A DNA stretch of 64,000 nucleotides from a bacterium (lineage in GTDB: Bacteria > Patescibacteriota > Microgenomatia > Daviesbacterales > UBA10151). The translations under genes were made by a program, and so were the position numbers. The notes under the pieces are model-generated. The model did not search any database. It was given only the letters and a program-made list of their open reading frames with translations, and had not been told where the DNA came from. The DNA lies in NCBI GenBank assembly GCA_021786315.1, contig JAJYNN010000002.1:270997-334996 (forward strand). Reading direction: 5' to 3'. Position 1 is the stretch's first letter, and the number at the start of each line of letters is the position of its first letter. Positions 7,042 through 45,048 of the stretch are shown here, piece after piece.

Positions 7042-8658
7042 ATGAAGTATATTTTTGTCTCCGGCGGAGTAATTTCCGGTATTGGTAAAGGTGTGGCTAC
7101 TGCCTCGATTGCCCTTAAGATCGGATCTGCAGGGTTTAAAGTTGCCCCCCTAAAAATTGACCCCTATTTAAATGTTGATGCCGGGACTATGAACCCTATT
7201 CACCACGGAGAGGTATTTGTTTTGGATGATGGCTCGGAAACTGACCAGGATTTGGGAAACTACGAGAGGTTTTTAGATGAACCCCTAAATAAAACAAATT
7301 ATGCGACATCCGGCCAGGTGTATTTATCGGTAATCCAACGGGAAAGAAGTTTGGGTTATGACGGTGACTGTGTGGAGGCGGTGCCCCACATTCCGGAAGA
7401 GATTATCAGAAGGATTGATGAGGCGGGAAAAAGCAAAAAAGCGGATATTGCGGTGATTGAGATTGGGGGAACGGTGGGTGAGATGCAAAATGTTTTCATC
7501 TTTGAAGCCAACAGGATGCTAAAGCTGAAAAAACCGGAAGATGTGATCCATATCCATCTAAGCTATCTGCCGATTCCTCCTTCTTTGGGCGAGATGAAGT
7601 CAAAACCGGTCCAGATGTCGGTCAAAGAGTTAAACTCCATGGGGATCCAGCCGGATATTTTACTGGCCCGATCGGGTGTTCCGGTTGATGAAATTCGCCG
7701 GAAAAAACTGGCACTGTTTTGTTCGGTGGAGCCGGAGGATATTATCTCGGCTCCGGACGTTAGAAACATTTATGAAGTGCCGGTTAATTACGAGGATGGT
7801 GGATTATCGGGAAGAATCCTGCAAAAACTGAGACTTAAAAGAAAGAACAAAGACTTAAAGGAGTGGCGGAAGTTTGAAAGCAAAGTTTCTTCTGCTGATA
7901 AACCTCTGAAAATTGGCATTGTGGGTAAATACTTCTCTACCGGCGATTTCACTTTGGCTGATTCCTATATTTCCGTTATTGAGGCTTTGAAGCATGCCGC
8001 TTTTACTCAAGGATATAAACCGGAAATTGCTTGGATTGATTCCGGGAAACTTTTAAAAGATATTGATCAGCTGCGGGATTACCAGGGGATTATTGTTCCG
8101 GGGGGGTTTGGATCCCGGGATATAGAAGGAAAAATTGAGGCCATCAGGTTTTGCCGGGTTAATAAAATTCCTTATTTCGGTTTGTGTTACGGAATGCAGT
8201 TGGCAGTAGTTGAATATGCCCGGAATGTTCTAAGGATGGCAGAGGCCAATACAACAGAAATTGATCCCAAAACAAAGTATCCGGTCATTCATATTATGTC
8301 TGATCAACAAAAGAAACTTTTGGAGAAAGATTATGGGGGAACGATGCGGTTGGGGGCTTGGGAGTGTAAATTAAAACCGGGAAGTTTGGTCAGAAAACTT
8401 TATGGGAAACCCAAGATTTCCGAACGCCACCGCCACCGCTATGAATTTAACAATGAGTTTCTAAAACAATTTAACAAGGAGCTATATGTTTCCGGAACCT
8501 CTCCTGACGGGAAACTGGTAGAGATTGTCGAGATGAAGGACCACCCGTTTTTTGTGGGAACCCAGTTCCATCCGGAATTAAAATCCCGCCCCCTTGACCC
8601 TCATCCTTTATTCATGGGTTTTATTAAAGCGGCTTCGAAAATTATTTTGCCCTCTTGA
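7042..8658 (+). CDS. pyrG: CTP synthase
   Basis: 538 aa. N-terminal MKYIFVSGGVISGIGKG. C-terminal GATase domain (GLCYGMQ, HRHRYEFN). Confidence 0.95.
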   Translation: MKYIFVSGGVISGIGKGVATASIALKIGSAGFKVAPLKIDPYLNVDAGTMNPIHHGEVFVLDDGSETDQDLGNYERFLDEPLNKTNYATSGQVYLSVIQRERSLGYDGDCVEAVPHIPEEIIRRIDEAGKSKKADIAVIEIGGTVGEMQNVFIFEANRMLKLKKPEDVIHIHLSYLPIPPSLGEMKSKPVQMSVKELNSMGIQPDILLARSGVPVDEIRRKKLALFCSVEPEDIISAPDVRNIYEVPVNYEDGGLSGRILQKLRLKRKNKDLKEWRKFESKVSSADKPLKIGIVGKYFSTGDFTLADSYISVIEALKHAAFTQGYKPEIAWIDSGKLLKDIDQLRDYQGIIVPGGFGSRDIEGKIEAIRFCRVNKIPYFGLCYGMQLAVVEYARNVLRMAEANTTEIDPKTKYPVIHIMSDQQKKLLEKDYGGTMRLGAWECKLKPGSLVRKLYGKPKISERHRHRYEFNNEFLKQFNKELYVSGTSPDGKLVEIVEMKDHPFFVGTQFHPELKSRPLDPHPLFMGFIKAASKIILPS

Positions 8659-8694
8659 AAAAGTTTTCCGGTTCCTGTAAAAAAGGAAAGCAAT

Positions 8695-9600
8695 ATGGCT
8701 GGAAAGATTGAAAAATATATGCCTGATTTGGACCGCATCAAGGAACATAGCAAAACCCCCGATCCATTAGTCCTTTCCCCTGAAGAATATGATGAAATCC
8801 TGGCAGAGCACAAGTTATACAGAGGCTCCCGTCTTTCCGATGTTGGCCTGTTAAAATGTATGGAGCTTGGGCTCATTAAAATTTGGAATGAAGATGGAAC
8901 ATGTCCTTTTAACGAAGAGCGTGTCCAGAGTTGCTCTTATGATGTCACACAAGGAAATGAATTTTGGCATTACATTGAACACGAGATTTCTGAAATCGAG
9001 TACGGAACTCACAAAGAAACAATCCAAAATTTGGATTTGCTTGCTTATAACTTCAGGAATACTGGAGAGACTTTTGTTTACCATCCCGGAAGCGTTGTCC
9101 TCTCATTCATCGGAGAAGGGATAAGCTTGGCTAATGTGGTGTCTGCTGATTTGGGGGGCAAAAGTTCTTTGGGGCGCCTTGGAACTCTAAACCACCAGAC
9201 TGCTTCGTTAGCTCATGCAGGTTTTAGTGGGAAAATCATGACAGAGCATTCTGTTAGCAATAGGTTATCTGTGAAAGTCCCGGTTGGCGCACCTATTGGG
9301 ACGCTTGTCTTTACCCTGCTTGACCAGCCCAGTACCCGGCCCGAAAACCAAAAATCTGACAGCCTAAGTAAAGCCTACAGACAGCGAGGGCCTTTTGGCT
9401 ATTGGAAGGATAAATGGACACAGATAAAAGCTGAGGCTATAGGAAGGTATATTTTAGCCAGGGAAAATGGTTCTGTTACTAATGACCACTACCTGGTGGA
9501 TATCAGAAGGAAGGCTGAGGAATATGATTCCCTTGTTGCTAGGGGGATTATTCCGGGACAAAATCCGGTTCCTTCGGGAAACGGCAGACACAGCATGTAG
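8695..9600 (+). CDS. dCTP deaminase/dUTPase-fold protein (DCD-like) with a ~120-aa N-terminal extension
   Basis: 301 aa. Carries the DCD signature GKSSLGRLG (compare GRSSLARLGL) and a jelly-roll C-terminal half (GFSGKIMTEH...PIGTLVF). Confidence 0.6.
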   Translation: MAGKIEKYMPDLDRIKEHSKTPDPLVLSPEEYDEILAEHKLYRGSRLSDVGLLKCMELGLIKIWNEDGTCPFNEERVQSCSYDVTQGNEFWHYIEHEISEIEYGTHKETIQNLDLLAYNFRNTGETFVYHPGSVVLSFIGEGISLANVVSADLGGKSSLGRLGTLNHQTASLAHAGFSGKIMTEHSVSNRLSVKVPVGAPIGTLVFTLLDQPSTRPENQKSDSLSKAYRQRGPFGYWKDKWTQIKAEAIGRYILARENGSVTNDHYLVDIRRKAEEYDSLVARGIIPGQNPVPSGNGRHSM

Positions 9601-9621
9601 AGCTTTTTGTAAAAAATAATT

Positions 9622-10131
9622 ATGGCAATCGAGAAGTTATCAGAAATATTAAAAAGGGTAGAAAAAGAGAATCTAATTGAAGGTTTGTGTGAACAAACAG
9701 GTAAGGGTGTGGGATTGAATCTAAGGTTAGGTAAAGTTTCCCAATGGATGGAAGGATATGCTGTAGGTTTTGACAGCAAGGGTTTGGATTATCGGCAAGC
9801 TGGGTGGAGGAACGTTGCCGATTGCCAGGGTGCGAGGTTCTTAGCTGAGTGCGACCAAGAGGACTTAGTTACCTCTCAAATCTTAAAACCTGGGGTTTAT
9901 TATCGGGTTGAGACGGTGGAAAAACTAAATGTTCCTACAGATCTCTTACCGGACGTTCGCTCAACACAACTTTTAGTGGATAACGGTTTGCGTTTAGAAG
10001 TGCCTGGAGGGATTGAACCAGGTTATACTGGGGCTATTCGGATGGGTTTGGTTAATCAAAATAGTTTTTCTGTCCCCATCCGTCTTGGCAGCCCGATTTG
10101 CCGGGTGGTTTTTCATAAAGTCGAAGAGTAG
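9622..10131 (+). CDS. dCTP deaminase-family protein (paralog 2)
   Basis: 169 aa. Shows LNLRLG (the DCD N-terminal DLRLG motif), GIEPGYTGAIRMGLVN (compare IDPGFRGEITLELxN) and ICRVVF. Confidence 0.65.
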   Translation: MAIEKLSEILKRVEKENLIEGLCEQTGKGVGLNLRLGKVSQWMEGYAVGFDSKGLDYRQAGWRNVADCQGARFLAECDQEDLVTSQILKPGVYYRVETVEKLNVPTDLLPDVRSTQLLVDNGLRLEVPGGIEPGYTGAIRMGLVNQNSFSVPIRLGSPICRVVFHKVEE

Positions 10132-10166
10132 TCTTCATCTGAATAAACTGTAAAGGTTAATAAGAT

Positions 10167-12038
10167 ATGCCAACAAAAGAAGGAAGTAGCCCCCAACAGA
10201 TTCTGGAAGTATACGGAATGCCACCAGTGAGAAAAGAAAATTATTTTGGACGCGGCGCTATCAACCTGCTTGCTCCGTTAGACTACAAGATGAGCATGTT
10301 GATCGGGGATCCGGATAGCGAAACGGCAATTATTACGGCTTGGGGTGACCCTTGGCACGCTTTACCCGAGGATATAGTGAAGGAATGCTCGGTAGCTGCC
10401 TCTCTAAGAATTCCCTGGGGTGTGGATTTAATGCTGCACAATTTAGCCAGTAATCCCCATATTCGGAGGGTGGGAATTTATGCCGCCGGGAAAAACGACA
10501 ACACCGAAACCGGGCAGATGCCTCTGGGTATTACCCGATCTTTGTGGACTAATGGAGTAACAGATGAGGGTGGGGTTATTGGCACTGGCCATAAACTTTC
10601 TCCGGAGCTGGTAAACGACGGCGCTATTGAAGCTGTCAGAGGTGTTTTAAATAATGTGGAGCTGTGTGAGTGGAGCCATCTTTCCCCGGAGGAATTATTA
10701 CAGGAAATTCAAAGATTCCCAAAGGTTGGACCATATGGGGAGAAGGTAGTGCTTCCGGAATTTAAAATCCAGGAAGTGGATACCTGGCCATCAGAGCTGG
10801 AGGGGCTAGTGGTTCGCAGGAGAGGAGCTTTTAATGCTTGGTTGGGAATAATTTCATCTATTATGCGTTATGGGCGGGAAGCATGTTTAGAAACAGCTAC
10901 CAGTATTAAGATTAAGGAACTTCCCTTTGTTCGGGTGGTGATTGAGGGCGAGAGGCCCTTTGATGATATTCCCCAATGGGCTTTGGACCTAAAAGCAGTA
11001 TCAATCACTCCTGAGGGATTGGAAGACTATTACCAAAGAATTTTTAGACCCGAGAGGCACCTCAAGGAGATCTTTCCTGGAGTGAAAAAGTTTGAAAGGC
11101 CAAAAGAGGAGAAGTATTTGTATGGGGAGTTAATCCATGCTTTTCCTAGGGATGAAAAGTACACCCGGGCTGTGTTGGAGCTGGCAAAACAAAGCGGCAT
11201 TCAAGTTACCAGGCAATTTTTGCGGGGTCTTGCTGGAGAGGCTACCGAGCAAATGGAAGAAACTGCTGACAGTGTTATTTCGGCAAAAGATTTGGATCCA
11301 GTACAACAAGCAGAGATTTTGCTAGAGGTGTATACACCAAGAACGAATCAGGTAGCCAAGGCTATCGAAAGAATCCGCCAGATTCCTGATGATGCCGATA
11401 AAACCTTTATCCTCTGGGATCCGGAAACCCATGGGATGCAATACCGGGGCAGACCATGTCTTTTGGAAATGGGACTTTTGGTAAGAGATGGGGCAATTTC
11501 CGGAAAAGCCGTCTTCCGGACGCATGACATGGCTAAAGGCTGGTTGCTCAACGCTTATGGAATCTGGAGAACTGTTGAGGATATTTGTAAAGAAACCGGC
11601 TATAAACAAGGTCCTCTGGTCATGGAATCGGAATCAGCTCATTTCTACAAAGGCGATATCAATTGGGTTAATGAGCTTTGGCAACAAGAGGTGCTCACTA
11701 GAGATATAGCTAAGCGGTTTGATTCAGCAAAGGCTGATCCCCGCGGTAACATTGTTGTGGATATTACCCCCGATAACAGGGTAGTAGTGAAGCTGACTGA
11801 CCCAAAGAGCGGAGCTACTATTCATAAATTTGAGGAAGATTCTGCCCGAGAGGCTCTTGCCCGTTTATCTCAGGAAGAAATTATTTCTCAACCCGGACAT
11901 GGTCTAGATATTGGTTTGCAATTAGGAGTTTTGGAGGTTGCCAGAAGATTGCGGGGAAAGGGTGTTGATATAGTCTTTACGCAAGATCAACCGTTTAAAA
12001 CTTGGGGAGCAGTTGAAGCAGAAGTAATAAAGGACTAA
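10167..12038 (+). CDS. divergent thymidylate synthase/dCMP-hydroxymethylase superfamily protein, 623 aa with large insertions and a C-terminal extension
   Basis: By eye against E. coli ThyA: IRQIPDDADKTFILWDPE aligns with LKNDPDSRRIIVSAWNVGE. GRPCLLE aligns with the APCH catalytic Cys. FRTHDMAKGWLLNAYG aligns with YQRSCDVFLGLPFNIASY, with the uracil-specifying Asn retained. ESAHFY aligns with GDTHLY. The N-terminus (KENYFGRGAINLL) resembles the TS N-terminal DRTGTGTLSIFG. Confidence 0.65.
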   Translation: MPTKEGSSPQQILEVYGMPPVRKENYFGRGAINLLAPLDYKMSMLIGDPDSETAIITAWGDPWHALPEDIVKECSVAASLRIPWGVDLMLHNLASNPHIRRVGIYAAGKNDNTETGQMPLGITRSLWTNGVTDEGGVIGTGHKLSPELVNDGAIEAVRGVLNNVELCEWSHLSPEELLQEIQRFPKVGPYGEKVVLPEFKIQEVDTWPSELEGLVVRRRGAFNAWLGIISSIMRYGREACLETATSIKIKELPFVRVVIEGERPFDDIPQWALDLKAVSITPEGLEDYYQRIFRPERHLKEIFPGVKKFERPKEEKYLYGELIHAFPRDEKYTRAVLELAKQSGIQVTRQFLRGLAGEATEQMEETADSVISAKDLDPVQQAEILLEVYTPRTNQVAKAIERIRQIPDDADKTFILWDPETHGMQYRGRPCLLEMGLLVRDGAISGKAVFRTHDMAKGWLLNAYGIWRTVEDICKETGYKQGPLVMESESAHFYKGDINWVNELWQQEVLTRDIAKRFDSAKADPRGNIVVDITPDNRVVVKLTDPKSGATIHKFEEDSAREALARLSQEEIISQPGHGLDIGLQLGVLEVARRLRGKGVDIVFTQDQPFKTWGAVEAEVIKD

Positions 12039-12047
12039 ACTAAAAAT

Positions 12048-12614
12048 ATGGCAGTTTTAGGACTTGATGAAGTACTTCGAAGAGTAAAAGAAGAAGGCCT
12101 CCTGGAAAATTTGGGAGACCGGGATTTAAATAACCCTGAAGGTGCGGGGTTGGATTTGCGTCTGGGAATTTTGTCCCGGATGACAGAAGGAGGGGCGTTT
12201 ATTGAAAGTGATGGGCCGGAAGGTTTAGGTAAAAGAAAGGGTGTTCAAACTGAGGTAGTTGCTGAATATAAACCAGGAGCCAAAACCCAGGAAGAAGTAG
12301 TTATTAAACCGGGTGAATATTATTTCGTTACCACTATTGAATCATTTAATGCTTCGGAAGACTTGTTATTTGTTCTTTATCCAAGAACTACTTTAATGAG
12401 AATGGGGCTTTTGCTTTTGGCCAACCGGGGAGATCCGGGATATAAGGGAACTGTTTCTATGGGTTTAGTAAATTTAAGTAAATTTGATGTCAAATTACAA
12501 ATGGGAGCCAGGGTTTGTAATGTAGTTTTCTATAAAGTAGAGGGTGAAACAGTTATGTACCGTGGCCAGCACGGCGGAAGGATAACTCCTACAGAGGTCG
12601 AACAACAAGTCTAA
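12048..12614 (+). CDS. dCTP deaminase-family protein (paralog 3; Dcd or bifunctional Dcd-Dut-like)
   Basis: 188 aa. Shows GLDLRLG, PRTTLMRMGLLL (compare GRSSLARLGL), GDPGYKGTVSMGLVN and CNVVFYKVEGE. The C-terminal dUTPase motif 5 is absent. Confidence 0.7.
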   Translation: MAVLGLDEVLRRVKEEGLLENLGDRDLNNPEGAGLDLRLGILSRMTEGGAFIESDGPEGLGKRKGVQTEVVAEYKPGAKTQEEVVIKPGEYYFVTTIESFNASEDLLFVLYPRTTLMRMGLLLLANRGDPGYKGTVSMGLVNLSKFDVKLQMGARVCNVVFYKVEGETVMYRGQHGGRITPTEVEQQV

Positions 12615-13079
12615 GCCCCAAGAAAGAGACCATCTTGTAGTAAAAACTACCCTGTTGACAAGAATTCCCAAAAGCTGCTACGTTTAAATGTACTGATCTG
12701 CTCCTGGCAGATTTTTTGTGATTTATGGAATCTGAATCGAAAATTGGACGGGAACAAAATAATAAAAATAATAACGGAACGGAAAGCATTCCGTCTAAAG
12801 CCCTTTATCCTGATAAAGGTGGACACTTTTTAAGAAGCCAATACTGGAAAGCGATGAAACTAATCGACCGCTCTTCTGAGCCCAGTTTCCGTTCAATGGT
12901 AACTGTTCCTGTTACTCCAGCAGATGTTAGCTGGCAAAGAAGAAGGTTCATGCCGCGCCATGGTATTAATGACGGTAGGCATTGACTTAAATCAAGGAAG
13001 CAGTTAGAATATCTGCAGTAAACATCTATTACTAGAGTTTTCCTGAATCCACTGGTAATAGAGAAGTCTAAGGAAAACG

Positions 13080-13904
13080 ATGAGTATTTCAGTTCCTTCA
13101 ATGCAGGATTTGTTAGAAGCGGGTGTTCATTTTGGACACCAGGTCCGCCGTGGCCACCCCAGGATGAAAGAGTTTATCTTTGGTGCCCGCGAAGGTGTCC
13201 ACATCATTAACCTGGAACACTCCGAGAAACTTTTACAGGAAGCTGCAGATTATGTTAATAAATTGGGGGCTGAGGGCAAGGTTATCCTTTTTGTGGGGAC
13301 CAAAAAACAAGCCCAGCCAATTATTAAAGAAGCAGCCGAAAAATGTAACGCTCCTTATGTTGATATCAAATGGATTGGCGGGTTCTTAACCAACTTTGAC
13401 GAAATCCGCAAGAATGTTAAAAAGCTTAATGATTTGGCAGAAAAAACCGAAAAAGGTGAATTAGTCCGTACTAAGAAAGAGCAGCTCTTGATTTCCAAGA
13501 AGCTGGAAAAGTTTGGCAAGGAATGGGGTGGAATTGCCAACATGGACAAGCTTCCGGATGCTTTGTTTATTGTCGATTGCGTGATGGAAAAGACTGCTGT
13601 TTTAGAGGCCAACAGGATGGAAATCCCGGTCATCGGCATTGCGGATTCCAACTGTAACCCGGCTCTTTTGGCCTTCCCGATTCCCGGAAACGATGATGCT
13701 ACCAAATCAATCAAGATTATTGTGGATGCTATCGCCGATGCTTATTCCCAAGGGTTAAAAGCTGCCGGGAAAGCGGCTGAAGCCAAGAAGAAAGAAGAAG
13801 AGGCTAAAGAAGAGAAAGCTGACGCTTCAATCGAAGCTGATGTGGAAGATGCTGAGGTGGCTGTAGAACAAGAAGCGGTTGAAGAAGCGAAAAGAGAAGT
13901 TTAA
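13080..13904 (+). CDS. rpsB: 30S ribosomal protein S2
   Basis: VHFGHQVRRGHPRM, and an acidic C-terminal tail. Confidence 0.95.
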   Translation: MSISVPSMQDLLEAGVHFGHQVRRGHPRMKEFIFGAREGVHIINLEHSEKLLQEAADYVNKLGAEGKVILFVGTKKQAQPIIKEAAEKCNAPYVDIKWIGGFLTNFDEIRKNVKKLNDLAEKTEKGELVRTKKEQLLISKKLEKFGKEWGGIANMDKLPDALFIVDCVMEKTAVLEANRMEIPVIGIADSNCNPALLAFPIPGNDDATKSIKIIVDAIADAYSQGLKAAGKAAEAKKKEEEAKEEKADASIEADVEDAEVAVEQEAVEEAKREV

Positions 13905-20914: not shown

Positions 20915-22489
20915 ATGGTTCTGTATCGTAAATACCGTCCACAAACTCTTGATGAAGTCATTGGCCAGACATTGGTCAAGCAAGCCTTAAAATCTGCCAT
21001 ATCTTCCGGAAAATTGTCCCACGCTTACCTCTTTTGTGGTCCCCGCGGGACAGGCAAAACTTCGACGGCCCGGATTTTGGCCAAGATGGTAAACTGCGAA
21101 GCCGGAAATGAAAAAGTCCCGTGCAATAAATGTTCAGCCTGTATGTCCATTACTGATGGATCAAATCTGGATGTGGTGGAAATGGATGCAGCATCCAATA
21201 GAGGCATTGAAGATATCCGGGTGTTACGGGACAACATCAAACTTTCCCCGACATCCTTAAAGAAAAAAGTCTACATTATCGATGAGGTGCATATGTTATC
21301 AACTGATGCCTTCAACGCCCTTTTAAAGACTTTGGAGGAGCCACCAGAGCATGTTTTATTTGTTTTGGCGACTACTGAGTTGCAAAAAATTCCGGCCACT
21401 ATTTTGTCCCGGGTTTCCAAGCTGGACTTTAAATCTGCAACCAGCGAGGAACTGGTTGAAGCTTTGGAAAGGGTAGCCAAGGCCGAAAAGATAAACGCGG
21501 ACAAAGGGGCAATTTTGGAGATCGGTAAAAAGGCCCAGGGCAGTTTCCGTGATGGAATTAAATTATTGGATTTGGTATCTACTCTTCCGGAAATCAACCA
21601 GGCGGCGGTCGAAGAATTTTTACGCGGGGGAGCGTTTGCCGGGGTAGCCGGACTCCTGGAAAATATTGCCGCCAAAAAAACCACAGAAGCCTTATCAAGT
21701 TTAGAAAAAGAGGTGGGTGCTGGGGTCAATATTAAAGAACTAACGATTACAATCCTGGATACCTTAAGGCAATTACTGCTTATTAAACACGGCTTGGGGA
21801 AGCAACTGGTAAGCGGGGAGGTTGATGAGGAGAAATATAAGGTGCTGGAAGGGCTGGCCGGAAAATTCGAAGCGGCCCATTTAGCTGTTGTAATTGAGAC
21901 TTTCCAAAAAAGCTTTGAACAGAACCGGTATTCCTCAGTGGCAATCCTGCCTTTGGAATTGGCGGTGGTGGAAAGTGCATCAGAGTATCAGAGTATCGGA
22001 GTATCGGAAGATCGGAAGGCGGAGGTGTTGGAAGATAAGCAGATCAGTAGAACGGAAAAATCTGATACGCCGATACATCGACACTCCGAAACACCAGCTG
22101 AGATTCCCATCATTGCCGTCCCTTCAGAGAACGCTTCCGAGGATATGCAAAAAATTACGGAAAAATGGAACTATATCCTGGAAACTGTCCGGGCGGCTAA
22201 TTTTTCCCTGGAAGCCTTGCTCCGTTCTTCGAGAATTGTAAAATGTGAGGGTAAAAACGTAGTTTTGGAAGTTCCCTATTCCTTCCACCAGAGGATAATT
22301 GAAGCCCCTAAAGCCCGGGATTTACTGGAAACAATTTTTGCTGATATTCTCCAGAGAAAGGTTCTTGTCTCAACCGTATTGGGGAAGAAAGCGGTAAAAA
22401 GTGAAGGATTGGCCAATGTTGAGGTGGCGGCGGATGATGAGATTGTCAAAATTGCCGCGGAGATTTTTAATTCGGAGCCGGCAAGCTAA
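20915..22489 (+). CDS. dnaX: DNA polymerase III subunit gamma/tau
   Basis: YRPQTLDEVIGQ, Walker A GPRGTGKTS, Zn module CNKCSAC, DEVHML, SRV. Confidence 0.93.
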   Translation: MVLYRKYRPQTLDEVIGQTLVKQALKSAISSGKLSHAYLFCGPRGTGKTSTARILAKMVNCEAGNEKVPCNKCSACMSITDGSNLDVVEMDAASNRGIEDIRVLRDNIKLSPTSLKKKVYIIDEVHMLSTDAFNALLKTLEEPPEHVLFVLATTELQKIPATILSRVSKLDFKSATSEELVEALERVAKAEKINADKGAILEIGKKAQGSFRDGIKLLDLVSTLPEINQAAVEEFLRGGAFAGVAGLLENIAAKKTTEALSSLEKEVGAGVNIKELTITILDTLRQLLLIKHGLGKQLVSGEVDEEKYKVLEGLAGKFEAAHLAVVIETFQKSFEQNRYSSVAILPLELAVVESASEYQSIGVSEDRKAEVLEDKQISRTEKSDTPIHRHSETPAEIPIIAVPSENASEDMQKITEKWNYILETVRAANFSLEALLRSSRIVKCEGKNVVLEVPYSFHQRIIEAPKARDLLETIFADILQRKVLVSTVLGKKAVKSEGLANVEVAADDEIVKIAAEIFNSEPAS

Positions 22490-23217
22490 TGGAAAAACTT
22501 AGATTAGGGATTTTTGCTTCCGGGGGCGGGACAACCGGAGAAGTAATCTTTGATAAGGCTGCTGTTATCTTAACCAACAACCCTCAAGCCGGCGTTATTG
22601 AGCTGGCTAAGCAACATCACATCCCTTGTGAAGTTTTGCTTCCAAGATCAGAGTTCCGTGTACTCAACTCTGTCGGGGAAAATGACAAAGAGTCGTCCCG
22701 CCTAAAATACGGGGAGTATCTGATTACAATTCTGAGTAACTATGCTGTTACCCATGGATCGTTGAATGGTTTTGATACTTTAATTCCTCAGAATGTAATT
22801 CAAGCATTTAAACTAGTGAATTCTCATCCCGGGCCTTTAGACCCCGGGTTTTTGGATTTTGGCGGAGAGGGTATGCATGGGTTGGCAGTACACCAAGCGG
22901 TAATCAATTTTTCTCGGATGATTGACCGGCCTTTTTCGACAGCAGTTTGTTTACATCGGGTAGTGGAAAAATATGATAAGGGGGAGTTGCTATCCCTTGT
23001 TGAAGTGGCGATTAAAGAAGATGACACCGCCGAGAGTTTGCAAGCGCGGGTGAAGGAAGTGGAGAAAGAGCAGAATAGAAAATTTTGGGAAAAAGTTGAA
23101 CAAGATAATGGGGAACTGAGGGTTATACAAAGGACTTCGAGAGTGATTTTACCGGGGGAGGAGGATCTTTTATTTCAGGCGAAAGAAGAGGCAATTGCCG
23201 CTTATCCTCACGGATAA
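22489..23217 (+). CDS. formyltransferase-family protein (PurN-like N-terminal formyl-transferase domain)
   Basis: LGIFASGGGTTG (compare PurN VLISGNGSN), NSHPGPL (compare NIHPSLLP with the catalytic N..H), and HQAV...DKGELL (the Asp region). Confidence 0.55.
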   Translation: MEKLRLGIFASGGGTTGEVIFDKAAVILTNNPQAGVIELAKQHHIPCEVLLPRSEFRVLNSVGENDKESSRLKYGEYLITILSNYAVTHGSLNGFDTLIPQNVIQAFKLVNSHPGPLDPGFLDFGGEGMHGLAVHQAVINFSRMIDRPFSTAVCLHRVVEKYDKGELLSLVEVAIKEDDTAESLQARVKEVEKEQNRKFWEKVEQDNGELRVIQRTSRVILPGEEDLLFQAKEEAIAAYPHG

Positions 23218-33954: not shown

Positions 33955-34064
33955 AGCTTATCTTAATTTAGCAAAATCAAGATAGGAAAAGATAAGAGAG
34001 AGGTCGTAACTTTGAAAGAATATCTTAGGTTTTTTTATGTTAAAATTACTCAGGAATAATTGCG

Positions 34065-34961
34065 ATGGCTAAACGTAAATCCTCCCACCGGTTTCAGATT
34101 TCCCCCGCTCACCTTAATATTATTCTCCTGGCAATTTTATTAACCCTTTTCGGCATTTATAGGACTTATGTTTTAGAGAATGAACCAAATTCCGGAAGGG
34201 AGGTTAGGGAGATGGGGCAACTGCCGTCAGAAATTAAAAAAGAACTTCAGGTTGCTTCCCCTTCTGCCACGTTCAGAGTCCCTGTTTTGCTTTACCACTA
34301 CGTTGAGTATGTCCAGGACAAAAAAGATACCACCCGGCAGTCGCTAAACATTAATCCTTATATCTTCGAGACTCAAGTTAAAACTTTGAAAGATGCCGGT
34401 TTCACTTTTATGACAGCTTCGGATATTGCCGATGTTTTGGATGGGAAAAAAGCTTTACCCCAAAAACCTGTGGCTCTGACTTTTGATGATGGGTACAGGG
34501 ACTTATATACTGATGTTTTGCCGATCCTTAAAAAATACGGTGCCCACGCGACTGCCTTTATTGTCCCGGGGTTTATTGATGGCCCAAACTCGATGTATGC
34601 CTGGCAACTCAAAGATGTTGCGGGAAGCGGGTTAGTGGAAATTGGGGCTCACACCATGCACCACAGCTACCTTAAAGGTATGGCGCTAAGTCGTGTCCAA
34701 TTCGAAGTTGACCAAAGTAAAGAAGCTTTGCAAAAAGAATTAGGAATTCCGGTTTCTTCTTTTGCTTATCCTTACGGGGCTTTTGATAAACAAACTGAAG
34801 ATGTTGTTAAAAATGCCGGTTTTAGAATTGCTATCTCTACAGTTCCCGGTGTAGAAGTAAACCAGGCAGACCGCTTTTTTGTTTACCGGATCCGTCCCGG
34901 TGCAAGAACAGGGGAAGAGCTTATTAAATTCTTAGAACAAAAAACATTTCACCCCTACTAA
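34065..34961 (+). CDS. polysaccharide deacetylase (NodB homology domain)
   Basis: ALTFDDGY...HTMHH NodB motifs, and an N-terminal TM anchor. Confidence 0.82.
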   Translation: MAKRKSSHRFQISPAHLNIILLAILLTLFGIYRTYVLENEPNSGREVREMGQLPSEIKKELQVASPSATFRVPVLLYHYVEYVQDKKDTTRQSLNINPYIFETQVKTLKDAGFTFMTASDIADVLDGKKALPQKPVALTFDDGYRDLYTDVLPILKKYGAHATAFIVPGFIDGPNSMYAWQLKDVAGSGLVEIGAHTMHHSYLKGMALSRVQFEVDQSKEALQKELGIPVSSFAYPYGAFDKQTEDVVKNAGFRIAISTVPGVEVNQADRFFVYRIRPGARTGEELIKFLEQKTFHPY

Positions 34962-35908
34962 AACATTTGTCGGTCTTTCAAATCCTGTTTGATTATTTCA
35001 ATAAATTTAGCGCTTCCGGTTTCATTTAAATGATCTGAATTGTCAGCAAAATCATCAGTATTAAACCTCTGGTCTTTTAAATAATTAAGATAAGGAATTT
35101 GTAGCTTTTCCGATATTTTGCCAACTGTTTTTTGCAAGTTCTCGTATTTTACCGGATCGACAGAAGAGTAATATGAGGCTGTTGCCGGGAAAGTGATTAA
35201 TACTACTTTTACTCCATGGCTCTGTAGCTTACTGATGGTATCTTCTAGGAGAGCGGTATTTTTAGGGATCAATGCCGGTCTCATGAAACTGGTATGTTTT
35301 TGGGCATTTTTTTGCCCGGCATTTTTCTCTTGTGACCTTTTTATCTTGGGGAAATCATACCATCCTACAGATGTGTTGTACTCAAGGAGATTATTTCTAA
35401 AACCGCTCATGGCCAGTGTGCGGATTGTTTCCGGATCATAAGAAGCGACCAAACTATAGTTTCGGGGATCTAAAGGATCGGGCTTTGCGGGAGGAATATC
35501 AAAGAATCGTTGGTAAAAAAATTTCCGCCAATATTCATTAGTGTTTTCTAAACTAAATTCTAAAGAAAAGTAGGAAATGCCGATAAAGGCTACTTTCAGA
35601 TTTGGCATCATATTGATGTATTTTGAAAGAATGGCGTGATCGTAATAGATATCCTGATTGGAGTTGGCTAAGTTACAGGAATTTTTAAAAAAGGCCGCGG
35701 GGTTAATATCATAATGGGCCTGGGAAGATCCAAGAATAATCATCTCTACTTTTGCCGGATCTTTTTCAATGCAGTTCCTTTTTAGAGTATAACTATTAGA
35801 AACAGAAGCAAGATTGTATTCCAAAATTAACACAAGAATTACCGGGACCGTTAAGAAAAGCAGTAACCTCTTTATAAAAAATATTGGAGAACCCGTTGTT
35901 CTATACAT
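34958..35908 (-). CDS. membrane-anchored SGNH/DltD-like putative acyl-esterase
   Basis: N-terminal TM. ILGSSQAHY (block I GDS-like) and SDHLNETG (block V DxxH). Confidence 0.45.
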   Translation of the reverse strand: MYRTTGSPIFFIKRLLLFLTVPVILVLILEYNLASVSNSYTLKRNCIEKDPAKVEMIILGSSQAHYDINPAAFFKNSCNLANSNQDIYYDHAILSKYINMMPNLKVAFIGISYFSLEFSLENTNEYWRKFFYQRFFDIPPAKPDPLDPRNYSLVASYDPETIRTLAMSGFRNNLLEYNTSVGWYDFPKIKRSQEKNAGQKNAQKHTSFMRPALIPKNTALLEDTISKLQSHGVKVVLITFPATASYYSSVDPVKYENLQKTVGKISEKLQIPYLNYLKDQRFNTDDFADNSDHLNETGSAKFIEIIKQDLKDRQMF

Positions 35909-36082
35909 TGCAATATATACAAAGAAATTATATAGTTATCTCATGCGTTTGGGAATGAAGATCTTAGCCTATCTTGTGGTGGCCCTGATTCTGATGGGCT
36001 TGGGGTATTATTTTATTTTCTCCTCAAAAAATTCCAATACCGGAACAGTTGGAGAACCTCCCATAAAAAGCATCTACGGATA

Positions 36083-37810
36083 TTGAAAATGAGGAGTTTC
36101 CCAAAACGTTTAGCTATTCAGGTTTTATTCGCAATTTTCCTGGTTCTAACTTTTTTCGAAATCTTGCTAAGAATATTTTGGAATCCTCCTTATTTGGAAG
36201 AAAAATATAAAAGAAATGATCTGGCCTGGCTTCAACAAAATGTAAAACTTAACCACTTTGGTTACCGTGACCGGGAGTTTGATTTAAAAAAGGATCCTGG
36301 GACTTTCCGGATATACACTGCTGGGAGCTCATATTCTTTTGGCTGGTACCTTAACGATTATAAATTGTCTTATCCTAAACAACTCGAATTATTACTTACT
36401 GACAAATTCAAAGACCACAAAATTGAAGTGGTAAACAGCGCTCGACCGGGGTTTAGTTTAGGGGAGCGGGTTAATAGATTAAAGACTGATGGTTTATTGT
36501 TTGACCCGGATATGTTTATATTAAGTATTAATCCATTCGATCTCTCGGTCAAAAGTTTTAAGCCGGGGATTACCAACTTGAAATTTATTCGGGATTTAAG
36601 GTTGTATCAATTTCTATATGCCAGGTTCGAAATTGCCCGGGTAGCCAAACTTCGCGATGCAGAGATTGTCGAAAATGCATCTGAGAACTCTAGCCAGTTG
36701 CAAAAAGTTGAAAAATTAATATTGGATGCTAAAAAGACGGCGGATGATAATGGGATAGATTTTGTGTTGTTGCTTTTTCCGGAACTGGATATAAATAATC
36801 CCAACGGTACCTATAAGTACACTAAGGTTAATGAGCAGTTTAAAACATTTGCCAAAGAAAATTCGATAAATTTTATTGATGCGTTTGAAGGATATAAAGG
36901 TTACCCTAAGAAGGGAGATCTAATTATAAATCCTACAGACCCTCACCCCAGTGCGCTTGCAAATAAGTTAACTGCTAACTATCTTTTAAATCAAATCGAT
37001 TTTGAAAAAATCATTAATTCATCCCGAACTTCCCCCGCTGTAGAAACTGCAACTGTTTCTTTAAATATGCCTTTAGATAGCTTTAATTTCATCTCATCAA
37101 TTGAGCCTTCAGGTTGGCTATATTTTAATAAGGAATTTGGGGGGACAATGAATTTCTTTTTACCGGATAGCCCGGACAGGGAAGTTTTGTATATGGAAGA
37201 TGTTTTAAAAACATCGGCCGGATTCACTAATGATGGTTGGCCGGGAGCAAAAATTGAACATCGAATTTTAGCTAAATCTAATCCTTTGGTGCTTCCGCAA
37301 AAATTGTATGGATATCGGGTGGTAGGAATTTCCGGGATAACCGGTTTTTGGGTGGAGGATGGTGCTTTACGGAGTAAAGATTTAGATCTTGTTTCTACAG
37401 AAATTACCAGAGACCAAAATAATATTTATCTGAAAGTAAATGACCCGCAAAAATTCCTGTTATATAAAATTACTGCAGATATCAGAATCAAACAATTTGA
37501 TATTGAAAAAGGAAAAATTACTGATTTATTTTCCACCCGATTAGAATCCGCAAGTGTTAACCAAGGCGGGCAAAAGGTATCTTTACAAGTTGAAGGTAAG
37601 ATCGGGTCTTTACCAAAGTTTACGTATTTAGGTAAGAAGGTTGGCTATGTCTGGCTGGATAATAAATTAGTTGGTGCTGATATTTCTGTGTCCGGTAATC
37701 AATTGGATATAGTTTTAAAAAACAAAGTTATAAAAGATTCGACTCTGGAAGTTCCCCTTGCCGAAGAGTTAGATAAGACTGTTGAAATGCCAACAATTTA
37801 TTATAAGTAG
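36083..37810 (+). CDS. membrane-anchored SGNH-hydrolase-like protein with a C-terminal beta-rich domain
   Basis: N-terminal TM. IYTAGSSYSFGW (GDS-like) and TDPHPS (DxH). Confidence 0.45.
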   Translation: MKMRSFPKRLAIQVLFAIFLVLTFFEILLRIFWNPPYLEEKYKRNDLAWLQQNVKLNHFGYRDREFDLKKDPGTFRIYTAGSSYSFGWYLNDYKLSYPKQLELLLTDKFKDHKIEVVNSARPGFSLGERVNRLKTDGLLFDPDMFILSINPFDLSVKSFKPGITNLKFIRDLRLYQFLYARFEIARVAKLRDAEIVENASENSSQLQKVEKLILDAKKTADDNGIDFVLLLFPELDINNPNGTYKYTKVNEQFKTFAKENSINFIDAFEGYKGYPKKGDLIINPTDPHPSALANKLTANYLLNQIDFEKIINSSRTSPAVETATVSLNMPLDSFNFISSIEPSGWLYFNKEFGGTMNFFLPDSPDREVLYMEDVLKTSAGFTNDGWPGAKIEHRILAKSNPLVLPQKLYGYRVVGISGITGFWVEDGALRSKDLDLVSTEITRDQNNIYLKVNDPQKFLLYKITADIRIKQFDIEKGKITDLFSTRLESASVNQGGQKVSLQVEGKIGSLPKFTYLGKKVGYVWLDNKLVGADISVSGNQLDIVLKNKVIKDSTLEVPLAEELDKTVEMPTIYYK

Positions 37811-37882
37811 GGATTACTGGATTCATACCCCAAACTCACGCAATTATTTCTGCTCAAATTTAAGATTTACCCATTAATTTCG

Positions 37883-38983
37883 ATGAAAGAGGTTTTGGTT
37901 GTTTTTCTTGTTTGGATTACGTCAATTAACCTTTTTGCCTTTACAGCCTTTCACCGCTTTAACCTAACGGGAGACACTGCCTATAACTGGACAAGCCGCT
38001 ATTTTTTACCGGCAAGGGATACGGATTTTTTTTCGCTGCATGAGAGGTGGGACTCTTATTGGTACTTGGATATTGCTGAACATGGATATTCGTTTCACAG
38101 TGGGGATAGTTTATCCAATGTAGCATTCTTTCCGCTTTATCCATTTTTAATAAGGATTTCCACTCCCATCTTTTTCGGCCAGGCAAATATAGCCGGTTGG
38201 TTTATAAGTGCCGTATCTTTACTTTTGGTGCTGATATATTTTTATAAACTAATCAAAAGATTTCATCCAAATATAAATCCTCATCTAGTTTTAGTTTTTC
38301 TGTTATTATTTCCGACTGCATTTTTTTTAAACGCGATTTATACAGAATCATTGTTTCTATTTTTGTCTATTGCTGCCTTTTACTACATGTTCAGTAAAAA
38401 CTTATTATTATCAGGAATCTTTGGCTTTTTGGCATCGGTGACGAGGCCTTCAGGTGTCTATCTCTTTATCCCACTTCTTTGGGAATATTACAGGCAAAAT
38501 TCCAGTATTAGAGCATTATTCAGAAAGGAATCTTTGTTTGTATTCTTAACTCCATTAGGTTTTGCTGTAACGCTGTTGATAGATTATTTACTTTTCCGCG
38601 ATCCGTTGTTATTTTTCAAAGTGGAAGGATGGTGGGGCAGGGGTTTTAACTTGAGGTCCGTATATATTAATCTTTTTAGTCAACCATCGGTTGTGAATTT
38701 TGCTTGTGACGTTTCGTTTTTCTTTTTTGCGGCTGCGGCCGCATATTTCCTTTTTAAAAATATCCGCACTTCTTATGGTCTTTATGTTTTGGTCACGATT
38801 TTGCCGGCAATTGCTTCGGGGACTTTGCTTAGTATCGGCAGGTATATTTTAGTGTTATTCCCGATATATATCTTGCTGGCTTCGATAAAAAACAAATATA
38901 TCCAGGCCTTAGTTCTTTTTAACTTTTCCCTCTATTTGGCCATGTTTACCACCCTTTTTGTAAACTACTATTGGACAGGATAG
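37883..38983 (+). CDS. polytopic membrane protein, putative GT-C-fold glycosyltransferase (PIG-V/DUF2029-like)
   Basis: 366 aa with about 9-10 TM helices. The Phe/Tyr/Leu-rich profile is typical of GT-C mannosyltransferases. Confidence 0.4.
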   Translation: MKEVLVVFLVWITSINLFAFTAFHRFNLTGDTAYNWTSRYFLPARDTDFFSLHERWDSYWYLDIAEHGYSFHSGDSLSNVAFFPLYPFLIRISTPIFFGQANIAGWFISAVSLLLVLIYFYKLIKRFHPNINPHLVLVFLLLFPTAFFLNAIYTESLFLFLSIAAFYYMFSKNLLLSGIFGFLASVTRPSGVYLFIPLLWEYYRQNSSIRALFRKESLFVFLTPLGFAVTLLIDYLLFRDPLLFFKVEGWWGRGFNLRSVYINLFSQPSVVNFACDVSFFFFAAAAAYFLFKNIRTSYGLYVLVTILPAIASGTLLSIGRYILVLFPIYILLASIKNKYIQALVLFNFSLYLAMFTTLFVNYYWTG

Positions 38984-39004
38984 ATTTGTGAGATAATAGC
39001 GCCA

Positions 39005-39301
39005 ATGGATTCCATTACTGATTTGTTTGATTTTGACTTTGAAGTTGAATATATGCTTTTTGTGGACGAGTTGGAAAACTCAGCCGGAATTTATGTTGTC
39101 CATACTGAAAAGGAAATATTAGATGCCGGGGAAACTGAGGACTTAAAAGAGGCAATAGAATCGCATCCTCATACCAAAAGCTGGATTGATAAAGCTCAAA
39201 AGGGGGATATCTATATTGCCTTCCATTCCGATCCAGATCCCGAAAGCCGCAAAGATAAGCTGCTTTATATCCAGTCTAAAATAATTCCTCAAGTAAGATA
39301 A
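39005..39301 (+). CDS. hypothetical acidic protein
   Basis: 98-aa ORF. Confidence 0.35.
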   Translation: MDSITDLFDFDFEVEYMLFVDELENSAGIYVVHTEKEILDAGETEDLKEAIESHPHTKSWIDKAQKGDIYIAFHSDPDPESRKDKLLYIQSKIIPQVR

Positions 39302-39371
39302 TCTTCTTTCTTCTTACTTACAAAAAGTTAATCCATTTTTAAGCTCTTCAAGATATCATTACTCTCGTAAA

Positions 39372-40211
39372 ATGCCTGCCACAAGGAGTAAAGAAAAAAA
39401 ATTCCAAAAAGAAGTTAAACTTGACCAAAAAGCTCAAAGAGCCTTGGCTTATCTTTCCGGAATTCCTCCGACAGAAGAAGAGACACTGACTCAAAATGTA
39501 ACTCTTTCGGAAGAAGAGAATGAGGAGTTTGAACACCTGCTTTCTATCTGGCTAACCCTACAGGAAACCGAGATTAAAGAGATAGGCAAAACTTTATTGG
39601 AGGTAATCCAAAGGTTAAAACTTTCTGCCAAAGGCATCCGCGGAAGGATCGAAAGCCAGGAGTATTTAAGGTTAGTGAGAAAAGCTTTTCGGAATTGGGC
39701 GGCAGCGGAGAGTGAAGAAAGAAGGATTCTGGTAAGAAATTTATTGGTTAATGCTGCCTCCAGATCTACGAGTCCGGATAATATTATATCGATGTTTATC
39801 GACTGGATAGACAACTATTCTGATGAACACTTCCGGGTAATCCGGGAAATTTCCCAAACCCAACCGGAGGGATTAACCAGAAGGGAGATGTGGGAACGGT
39901 TTTATCCCGGAAGGGAAATTCCGGCAGAGGATAGTGCCGAAGCGGATATGTTTAAGATGTTAATTTTGGATTTAACAACTGGGTATGTAATCCGGCAACC
40001 CCGGGAGAAAGATTTTTACGGATATTATGTCAGAGCCAGATCTACCACCAAGGCTGTTGCCGGAACGGAGGCTGTCCAAAGGACTACGGCCTTTGATAAT
40101 AGTAAAAAATACGTTTTAACGGAGCTTGGTAAACAATTTGTGCTTTATACTATGGAAGAGACTGAACCGGAAATGGAAAATACCTCCGAGGAAACCGCGA
40201 TAGACATATGA
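39372..40211 (+). CDS. hypothetical protein
   Basis: 279-aa ORF. No motif recognised. Confidence 0.4.
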   Translation: MPATRSKEKKFQKEVKLDQKAQRALAYLSGIPPTEEETLTQNVTLSEEENEEFEHLLSIWLTLQETEIKEIGKTLLEVIQRLKLSAKGIRGRIESQEYLRLVRKAFRNWAAAESEERRILVRNLLVNAASRSTSPDNIISMFIDWIDNYSDEHFRVIREISQTQPEGLTRREMWERFYPGREIPAEDSAEADMFKMLILDLTTGYVIRQPREKDFYGYYVRARSTTKAVAGTEAVQRTTAFDNSKKYVLTELGKQFVLYTMEETEPEMENTSEETAIDI

Positions 40212-40224
40212 TATTATCTAGTTA

Positions 40225-40689
40225 ATGCCTAAGATTCTTCGTTTAATTTTGGCTGTTTTGCTTTGTGAGGGGGCGGGAATTCTAGGTTCCTTATTTACTA
40301 TTTCTTCAATACCGACCTGGTACGCTACTTTAAATAAACCATTTTTTAGTCCTCCCAACTCTATCTTCGGGCCGGTCTGGACTATCCTTTATCTTTTAAT
40401 GGGTGTTGCCTTGTTTTTAATCTGGGAAAACAAGGGAAGCAAGGGAAGGGCTTTACAGGTTTTCTTTATTCAATTGGGTCTAAACGTGTTATGGTCTCTG
40501 GTTTTCTTTGGCGCTCACCAGCTGCTTTTGTCTTTAATTATCATCGTCGCCTTGTGGTACTTTATTTTCCAAACCATCAAGGCTTTTGCCCGGATAAATA
40601 AAACTGCCTCATATTTGCTTTACCCATATTTGACATGGGTCTCTTTTGCCTTAATTTTGAACTTAGGAATTGTGATTTTAAACCGCTGA
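40225..40689 (+). CDS. tspO: TspO/MBR tryptophan-rich sensory protein
   Basis: WYATLNKPFFSPPNSIFGPVWTILYLLMG, five TM. Confidence 0.82.
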   Translation: MPKILRLILAVLLCEGAGILGSLFTISSIPTWYATLNKPFFSPPNSIFGPVWTILYLLMGVALFLIWENKGSKGRALQVFFIQLGLNVLWSLVFFGAHQLLLSLIIIVALWYFIFQTIKAFARINKTASYLLYPYLTWVSFALILNLGIVILNR

Positions 40690-44579: not shown

Positions 44580-45047
44580 ATGAAAAAAGTACTACTCTCC
44601 CTAGTAGTTATTTTAGGGTTTGCGTTTTATGCTTTTGGCCAAAAGGACAAGGAAGGCCAGGCTAATGAGGTTGGTGTATTGCCGCTTCCTACCCCAGCTG
44701 ATACAGGTACTCCGATATCTGACCAGAATATTCCTGCTCAGACAAATCCTCCGGCATCCCCGGGAAAATATCGGGATGGTGAATATACGGGTGATTCTGC
44801 TGATGCTTATTACGGAAATGTCCAAGTTAAAGTGGTTATTTCCGGCGGGAAAATTAGCGATGTTCAATTTTTAGATTATCCACGCGATAGGCGGACTTCT
44901 CAGCTGATTAATTCTCAAGCAATGCCGTTTTTAAAGCAGGAGGCAATCCAGGCCCAAAACGCTAATGTCGACATTATCTCCGGTGCTACTGCTACCAGCG
45001 AGGCTTTCAGGCAGTCTTTGCAGTCGGCGTTATCAAAGGCAATTTAA
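44580..45047 (+). CDS. secreted FMN-binding domain protein (substrate of ApbE flavinylation)
   Basis: Signal peptide MKKVLLSLVVILGFAFYAFG. FMN_bind domain with the flavinylation motif DIISGATATS (Dxx[ST]GAT[ST]). Confidence 0.8.
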   Translation: MKKVLLSLVVILGFAFYAFGQKDKEGQANEVGVLPLPTPADTGTPISDQNIPAQTNPPASPGKYRDGEYTGDSADAYYGNVQVKVVISGGKISDVQFLDYPRDRRTSQLINSQAMPFLKQEAIQAQNANVDIISGATATSEAFRQSLQSALSKAI

Positions 45048-45048
45048 A

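Follow-up and report, generated by a model that had tools for sequence, protein, structure and literature searches.

Thymidylate synthesis is an essential process and a classic drug target, for which, to our knowledge, there are just two established enzyme systems: ThyA working with dihydrofolate reductase (DHFR), and the flavin-dependent ThyX. The thymidylate synthase (TS) fold itself occurs in several described settings, including canonical ThyA (E. coli and L. casei; PF00303, TIGR03284), the bifunctional DHFR-TS of protozoa and plants, the TS-fold hydroxymethylases and hydroxylases (T4 dCMP hydroxymethylase, MilA, and the phage 5-hydroxy-dCMP synthase 9iqc), and the methanogen-type TS of archaea (TIGR03283), a single-domain enzyme of ~200-220 amino acids (aa), presumably of the M. 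jannaschii MJ0757 type, whose one-carbon donor is, as far as we know, not settled. Here, we analyse a 64,000-nucleotide stretch of bacterial DNA (GenBank assembly GCA_021786315.1, contig JAJYNN010000002.1, positions 270,997 to 334,996; hereafter the window) and, within it, a gene at 10167-12038 (+) that encodes a 623-aa protein composed of three domains, namely an MtrA-like Rossmann domain, a short archaeal-type TS domain, and DUF4346. On the evidence of its sequence and setting, this protein is probably a housekeeping enzyme that converts dUMP to dTMP by the standard Cys chemistry with a methylene-tetrahydropterin as donor.

The architecture is already present in databases, where it is automatically annotated as TS, and it appears to be uncharacterised. 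The new observations are a rare long-form clade to which the window protein belongs, the re-wired active site of that clade, and the displacement of the thyA-folA pair at one chromosomal site.

Domain architecture and family membership

The open reading frame (ORF) at 10167-12038 (+) runs through 623 codons without interruption. The same protein, 100% identical, is called on six contigs of independent assemblies, one of which measures 942,606 bp, and nine homologues with 24-53% identity align across 92-99% of its length, those with 40-53% identity covering 96-99%. Because of these full-length homologues and identical calls, the ORF is not a frameshift or fusion artefact, a concern that had been raised in an earlier interpretation made from the DNA letters alone (the sequence-only reading). 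In an AlphaFold2 (AF2) model (mean predicted local distance difference test score, pLDDT, 78.9), three folded units are joined by linkers of low confidence, at aa 200-212 and 512-525. The parts of the gene are as follows.

10167-12038, + strand: TS gene, a complete 623-aa ORF with MtrA-like, TS and DUF4346 domains (ORF list, homologues, AF2 model)
10167-10286, + strand: N-terminal leader, aa 1-40, including KENYFGRGAINLL (aa 23-35), upstream of all TS homology
10287-10736, + strand: MtrA-like Rossmann-type domain, aa ~41-190 (profile matches)
10806-11699, + strand: short archaeal-type TS domain, aa ~214-511 (TIGR03283, PF00303)
11736-12035, + strand: C-terminal DUF4346 (PF14251) domain, aa ~524-610, plus tail (homology to the DUF4346 of relatives)

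The leader, in which R22, P37 and K41 are conserved only inside the long-form clade, had been taken for the N-terminal TS motif bearing the Arg21 loop. This assignment has to be withdrawn, as KENYFGRGAINLL lies outside the TS fold and precedes even the MtrA-like core, and TS homology starts at aa ~215. The domain that follows the leader has the Rossmann-type fold of MtrA, the corrinoid subunit of methyl-tetrahydromethanopterin (H4MPT):coenzyme M (CoM) methyltransferase (PDB 5l8x, 5laa), with aa 45-189 matching MtrA in TIGR01111 (8e-5) and PDB 5l8x (1e-4). The score of 22.3 bits misses the TIGR01111 cut-off of 249, and the cut-off of PF04208 (MtrA) is passed only in relatives, not in the window protein. 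In MtrA, His84 is the cobalt ligand and is hydrogen-bonded to Glu54 (PMC4915002). The window protein differs in lacking this corrinoid-ligating dyad, with Thr113 in place of the His and no Glu where Glu54 would align, as well as the membrane anchor and the mtr partner genes; by alignment, the GAIPF(Y/F)xEN motif of MtrA is not conserved in its N-terminal domain either.

For the central domain, the best-scoring TS model is the methanogen-type TIGR03283 (6.7e-20), with aa 215-498 covering model positions 2-198 of 201. PF00303 is matched over aa 391-508 at 34.9 bits (gathering score 24.3), which places the protein in the TS superfamily and the catalytic core at the point, about aa 390, from which the sequence-only reading had counted it. 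The family profile of the TS domain finds PDB TS structures at 1.5e-28, and hhalign pairs it with E. coli ThyA at a probability of 99.2%, with helix A opposite aa 222-236. Short three-domain relatives nearly reach the TIGR03283 cut-off (168.7 vs 174.55 bits for one of them, P0040), the window protein only 71.5 bits, and unlike both, the archaeal enzymes consist of the TS domain alone.

An extension does follow the core, as had been noted, of ~110 aa rather than ~120. It contains the invariant DUF4346 residues D524, R526, H578 and D607, together with P525, G527 and Q606, which vary little or not at all according to the alignment used. PF14251 itself matches the window protein weakly (13.4 bits vs 29.6, E 0.14), whereas relatives pass its cut-off. 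A Pfam scan found no PF00186 (DHFR) domain in the 623-aa protein. The arrangement resembles bifunctional DHFR-TS in that TS lies downstream of an alpha/beta nucleotide-type domain and in that the fusion stands where relatives have separate thyA and folA genes, but the N-terminal domain here is not DHFR, and any reductase function is hypothetical.

An exhaustive profile search over 1.84 billion representatives yielded 404 clusters at E<=1e-30, mostly of 460-530 aa, in which PF04208, PF00303 and PF14251 all pass the Pfam cut-offs. These relatives are annotated "thymidylate synthase" or "hypothetical protein" and come from Patescibacteria, including Vogelbacteria, Ryanbacteria, Pacebacteria and Parcubacteria. 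The window protein, although only 21-31% identical to these short forms, is a member of the same family, because the terminal domains of long and short forms are homologous (hhalign probability 100%, E ~1e-38) and homology extends over the full length in the same order, as in the match of the short form P0010 (2.9e-26, 92% coverage). Compared with the patescibacterial three-domain TS annotated by PGAP/JGI (~460-530 aa), it shares the domain order, the catalytic residues and the DUF4346 invariants, and differs by two insertions, by DxDK in place of Arg-Arg, and by R-P-C in place of P-P-C. In the phage collection, only a weak match to the TS core and no three-domain architecture was found.

The two outer domains also occur together elsewhere. 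In NF002128 ("MtrA", 390 positions), the N-terminal domain matches positions 109-242 and the relatives' DUF4346 matches 284-369; the latter also matches the final 80 positions of TIGR00284 ("dihydropteroate synthase-like protein"). These profiles indicate that the MtrA-like domain plus DUF4346 is a pre-existing module, between whose halves the TS domain sits in the fusions. DUF4346 recurs with three kinds of pterin-related protein, and this association is the sole functional clue to it.

Further variants were seen among the relatives. One three-domain protein, P0111 (733 aa), carries an extra C-terminal dCMP deaminase domain (PF00383, 2.3e-18), a Rosetta-stone link to dUMP supply, and P0031, P0067 and P0152 (786-862 aa) contain further unassigned or duplicated segments. 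In a single case (L050, 15457-15993), a short-form three-domain TS has a gene for a PduO-type cob(I)alamin adenosyltransferase at a distance of 4.5 kb, which is of note given the MtrA-like N-terminal domain.

Catalytic residues and substrate

Whether aligned to TS of known structure or to E. coli ThyA, the protein gives the same residue equivalences, as follows.

Y319: E. coli Y94
Q395: E. coli Q111
C431: E. coli C146
R451: E. coli R166
T452: E. coli S167
D454: E. coli D169
G458: E. coli G173
N462: E. coli N177
H492: E. coli H207
Y494: E. coli Y209
11451-11459, + strand: R429-P430-C431, the catalytic Cys after a clade-specific invariant Arg (alignments)
11517-11552, + strand: R451-T452-H453-D454 through N462, with phosphate, pterin and uracil contacts (hidden Markov model alignments to PDB TS)
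11634-11648, + strand: S490-A491-H492-F493-Y494, with the deoxyribose 3'-OH contacts of the His207/Tyr209 equivalents (alignments)

Among 48 diverse family members, C431, R451 and N462 never vary, and conservation is 90% or higher at D454, H492 and Y494. The sequence-only reading was therefore right to regard the Cys of its PC motif, the Arg, and the Asn of LLNAYG as positionally TS-like, and to count the uracil-specifying Asn as retained. Relative to canonical ThyA, the protein keeps the TS fold and the equivalents of C146, R166, D169, N177, Y94, Q111, H207 and Y209; it differs in having two flanking domains and in lacking R126, R127 and apparently R21, and departs further at H147 (Leu), Q165 (Phe), D205 (Ser) and L143 (Gly428). 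The N-terminal half of its TS fold is short, and the region of helix B, E58 and W80 is not alignable; hhalign sets E242 opposite R21 at low column confidence, and K250 and E251 are conserved candidates for the roles of Arg21 and Glu58.

At position 177, Asn specifies dUMP and Asp specifies dCMP (PMC13326640), a rule that PDB 1njc, an N229D mutant with dCMP, also fits. N177D and D169N together are signatures of the TS-fold hydroxymethylases and hydroxylases, and the flavin-dependent 5-hydroxy-dCMP synthases carry D169N (PMC13326640). The window protein, in its housekeeping context, keeps both the Asn177 and the Asp169 equivalents. In place of the Asp at N177 and the acidic residue at L143 that mark dCMP hydroxymethylase and MilA (PMC13326640), it has N462 and G428, and it has neither the D169N nor the N177D of the flavin-dependent 5-hydroxy-dCMP synthases (RB69 gp48 / HY126 type, PDB 9iqc). 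Since the Asp169 equivalent is kept and these flavin-dependent synthases carry D169N, a pterin donor is favoured over flavin.

Operon context and displacement of thyA and folA

The gene stands among the following neighbours.

7042-8658, + strand: pyrG (CTP synthase), upstream boundary of a conserved slot (83% identical to a Candidatus Daviesbacteria metagenome-assembled genome; synteny)
8695-9600, + strand: Dcd-like gene, 301 aa, with the dCTP deaminase Glu kept (PF22769 5e-20, TIGR02274 6e-24, alignment to E. coli Dcd 1xs1)
9622-10131, + strand: dUTPase-like paralogue, 169 aa, with Gly at the Dcd catalytic Glu (profile matches, alignment)
12048-12614, + strand: dUTPase-like gene, 188 aa, conserved slot member (NF002598 9e-17; Gly at the Dcd Glu position)

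Intergenic gaps of 10-37 bp around the TS gene are consistent with an operon of the gene and its neighbours. The order pyrG-dcd-dut-TS-dut, as assigned from sequence, spells out CTP synthase, dCTP to dUTP, dUTP to dUMP, and TS, and this setting upholds the earlier proposal that dUMP arising from deamination is the likely substrate. The flanking deaminases that had been proposed are only partly so: the 8695-9600 protein keeps the catalytic Glu of Dcd, whereas the other two have Gly and are dUTPase-like. The two dUTPase-like paralogues, on either side of the TS gene, are 37% identical, and only the 188-aa copy has orthologues in ThyA-type relatives (56-71% identity). The Dcd-like protein has N- and C-terminal extensions.

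The gene order topA-pyrG ... rpsB-tsf-frr-rseP-proS is common to ~15 related genomes, and topA-pyrG-dcd-dut-TS-rpsB synteny is kept in L001 and L003. Given the PyrG identity and this shared order, the window is ordinary chromosome of a Daviesbacteria-like bacterium (Microgenomates, Candidate Phyla Radiation (CPR)). Short forms elsewhere adjoin thymidylate kinase and Dcd genes within ribosomal-protein and rpoBC clusters. Seven of the related loci (L009, L010, L012, L013, L017, L018, L027) bear GTDB titles of "uncultured Gammaproteobacteria bacterium" yet have Daviesbacteria-like topA-pyrG synteny (and rpsB where the locus reaches it), with PyrG 66-77% identical to that of the window; the titles look wrong.

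Between pyrG and rpsB, three different cassettes occur among related genomes.

Seven relatives (L008, L009, L011, L014, L016, L027, L031): Dcd; canonical ThyA (333 aa, PF00303 8e-96); FolA (163 aa, PF00186 1e-53); orthologue of the 188-aa dUTPase-like protein
The long forms (window, L001, L003): a different Dcd; dUTPase; three-domain TS; neither ThyA nor FolA
L007: dCMP deaminase; kinase; Dut; Tmk; standalone 243-aa short TS-like protein

Because the same slot holds ThyA and FolA in seven relatives, the three-domain gene is a positional replacement of the thyA-folA pair. The Dcd that travels with it shares 41-45% identity among its carriers (window, L001, L003) but only 26% with its counterpart in the ThyA-type cassette. 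No DHFR gene was found within the 8-10 kb of flank fetched for eight three-domain contexts; tblastn with the DHFR of L008 gave no match in the 64-kb window, and Pfam scans covering the majority of the larger window ORFs detected no DHFR, GlyA, FolD or ThyX. The only folate-related match of these scans is a Formyl_trans_N protein (22489-23217, 242 aa, 6e-13) without the Fmt C-terminal domain, which suggests that a folate-type cofactor is probably in use in this genome.

The slot as a whole (window 7042-13904; also L007, L008, L009, L011, L013, L014, L016, L027, L031, L001, L003) is a hot spot for dTMP-synthesis cassettes, of which there are at least three. The standalone protein of L007 (8304-9035, +) belongs to a TS-like family of ~215-245 aa with >5,700 matches (P0282-P0401 among them) annotated "thymidylate synthase", in which D-P-P-C, FRSWD and Asn are invariant, the Arg-Arg pair is absent, and TIGR03283 scores are 74-88 bits vs 174.55.

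The long-form clade and its phosphate site

Long forms are rare, making up ~20 clusters of 577-686 aa, and a contig scan with the family alignment detected none in the GTDB species representatives, a collection outside which the window's own genome lies. They are distinguished by two insertions in the TS domain and by a changed phosphate site.

11049-11090, + strand: insertion 1, aa 295-308 (PERHLKEIFPGVKK), ~14 aa, long-form-specific (absent from ~500-aa relatives in the alignment)
11130-11336, + strand: insertion 2, aa ~322-390 (~65 aa), between the Y94 and Q111 equivalents, at the TS small-domain site (alignment, AF2)
11385-11402, + strand: PDDADK, aa 407-412, with A410-D411 at the Arg126/Arg127 positions (alignments to TS)

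Near insertion 1, G305, V306 and F309 are nearly invariant among long forms. Insertion 2 varies from 60 to 85 aa across the clade, and the distance from Y.YG to PC is 108-134 residues in 22 long forms vs ~50 in short forms. In the AF2 model it folds into helices at 330-343, 345-356, 361-372 and 378-389 (pLDDT 83-93); it matches no Pfam family, and a nucleoside 2-deoxyribosyltransferase hit (Pfam E 0.14) was discounted as noise. The TS of L. casei and E. faecalis is expanded at the same small-domain site.

In canonical TS, Arg126 and Arg127 are the partner-subunit residues that reach the dUMP phosphate across the dimer. Motif counts over 264 scorable family sequences (22 long, 242 short) separate the two groups sharply at this point. 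The Arg-Arg pair is present in 194/242 short forms and 0/22 long forms, and DxDK in 22/22 long forms and 0/242 short forms; at position -2 from the catalytic Cys, Arg occurs in 22/22 long forms (R-P-C) and Pro in 178/242 short forms. The L143 equivalent is Gly in long forms (G428) and Glu in 112/242 short forms, and the basic residues K308, R311, R328, R402, K412 and R440 are conserved in long forms only. As the lost Arg pair covaries perfectly with the gained Arg beside the Cys, we infer compensation rather than decay: the phosphate site may have been rebuilt in cis, perhaps with an altered quaternary structure.

Proposed reaction and competing explanations

The conserved residues, read in the light of established TS enzymology, suggest how a housekeeping dUMP-to-dTMP reaction would proceed. 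Dcd (8695-9600) would make dUTP from dCTP, and the two dUTPase-like proteins would make dUMP from it. Cys431 would then attack C6 of dUMP, with Asn462 reading the uracil face, Arg451 holding the phosphate, and His492 and Tyr494 holding the 3'-OH, while Asp454 would bind the pterin ring of the methylene-tetrahydropterin donor (folate or a relative) and Tyr319 would aid removal of the C5 proton. In the long-form clade, the partner's Arg-Arg pair is lost and the Arg beside the Cys and the helical insert are gained. The MtrA-like plus DUF4346 module is proposed to bind or process the pterin cofactor, a role suggested by its association with pterin enzymes and by the missing folA in the slot. It is conceivable, though we would not expect it, that the module makes the TS self-contained without a separate DHFR, reducing the dihydropterin in place or delivering reducing equivalents from another cofactor; this sparing of DHFR may be entertained as the least certain step of the explanation.

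Several observations weigh against a housekeeping TS of this kind. Of the four Arg with which canonical TS binds the phosphate, the protein lacks three (R126, R127 and, by hhalign, R21), the L143 equivalent is G428 (Cys-3) and not a bulky hydrophobic residue, and all NCBIfam TS equivalog cut-offs are failed (TIGR03283 71.5 vs 174.55, TIGR03284 18.9 vs 108.35, PRK01827 25.9 vs 327 bits). The MtrA-like domain is without known corrinoid ligands and DUF4346 without a solved relative, so that the role given to the module is guesswork; literature searches (DUF4346, PterinBD, MtrA with thymidylate, TS in CPR/Patescibacteria) returned nothing on the architecture. Moreover, the window covers only 64 kb of a genome of ~943 kb, and folA, thyX or a second thyA may lie elsewhere.

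The main rival, which we consider improbable, is an enzyme that modifies C5 of dUMP but omits the final hydride-transfer step, for instance a hydroxymethylase turning dUMP into 5-hmdUMP, in which case tetrahydrofolate would not be oxidised and DHFR would not be needed. Among phage TS homologues, methyl products go with a bulky hydrophobic residue at L143, and hydroxymethyl products with an acidic or non-bulky one (PMC13326640); the Gly of long forms and the Glu of many short forms agree with the latter, and the absence of folA from the slot is likewise what this rival predicts. However, the gene occupies the slot of the canonical thyA of close relatives, in several lineages lies in housekeeping operons with thymidylate kinase, Dcd and Dut as neighbours, and has an architecture not found in the phage collection, and the cell still requires dTMP. 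The L143 rule, moreover, fails for short three-domain forms that fall just under the TIGR03283 cut-off (P0040), and, coming from canonical and phage clades, it may not be transferable to short-type TS. A corrinoid route, in which a methyl-corrinoid on the MtrA-like domain would methylate the Cys-activated C5 of dUMP and a methyl-pterin on DUF4346 would recharge the corrinoid, is very unlikely. Corrinoid proteins of the His-off kind exist, so Thr at the His84 position could be accommodated, and the PduO-type adenosyltransferase gene of one relative, 4.5 kb away, points the same way; on the other side, neither the His84/Glu54 dyad nor the GAIPF motif is conserved, no corrinoid genes appeared in the window where its larger ORFs, for the most part, were scanned with Pfam, and the pterin-binding Asp169 equivalent kept in the TS site argues for a methylene-pterin donor.

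A degenerate or regulatory, non-catalytic TS paralogue, with dTMP coming from salvage, would account for the lost Arg-Arg pair and the low equivalog scores and would suit the heavy dependence of CPR bacteria on salvage. Yet hundreds of clusters keep the nucleophile and other core residues unchanged, the lost Arg covary with the invariant Arg gained by the Cys in a compensation-like manner, and the gene is apparently co-transcribed with dUMP-making enzymes, which together make this account highly implausible. The sequence-only reading had instead pictured a single TS fold split by an insertion of ~250-300 aa, with the insert and the C-terminal extension transferring a group onto a 5-hydroxymethyl intermediate in the manner of phage hypermodification, a picture prompted by a length more than twice that of a normal TS and by the deaminase-family genes on either side. 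It is refuted on anatomy and scarcely credible as an explanation. TS homology begins at aa ~215, and the N-terminal 200 aa form an independent MtrA-like domain; the real insertions into the TS domain are only ~14 aa and ~65 aa, the latter composed of helices without a family match at a known variable small-domain site; and the C-terminal domain is DUF4346, common to dihydropteroate synthase-like and MtrA-like proteins. What had looked like extra sequence is thus made up of two recognisable flanking domains and the helical insert. A second activity on a 5-hydroxymethyl intermediate also sits badly with a conserved housekeeping chromosome, with the thyA-folA slot of relatives, and with the lack of any similar record in the phage collection. 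A housekeeping thymidylate synthase remains the favoured account.

Other features of the window

Outside the operon, the region 34000-43050 has a low GC content (0.36-0.39 vs ~0.43-0.46 elsewhere) and contains large ORFs without a Pfam match (34958-35908 (-) and 36083-37810); beside this low-GC stretch, 40690-43050 (-) encodes a 786-aa TrwB/VirD4- and HerA-like ATPase. The region may be a mobile or secretion-related island. At 44965-47297, an ApbE flavin-transferase gene directly precedes one whose 503-aa product joins an NQR2/RnfD-like region to an NAD_binding_1 reductase domain; in a minimal genome such a pairing is unusual. Scans for tRNA genes and for Rfam families at gathering score found none across the 64 kb.

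Biological significance

A widespread CPR thymidylate synthase is permanently fused to two pterin-associated domains and, at one chromosomal site, is seen displacing thyA and folA. The long-form clade constitutes a natural experiment in which the inter-subunit phosphate site, a textbook hallmark of the obligate TS dimer, has been re-wired. The family also offers a lead on thymine synthesis in minimal, folate-poor cells and on the old question of ThyA without FolA. If the enzyme does operate free of DHFR, one gene would replace the thyA-folA pair and would represent a third route to thymidylate beside ThyA/FolA and ThyX.

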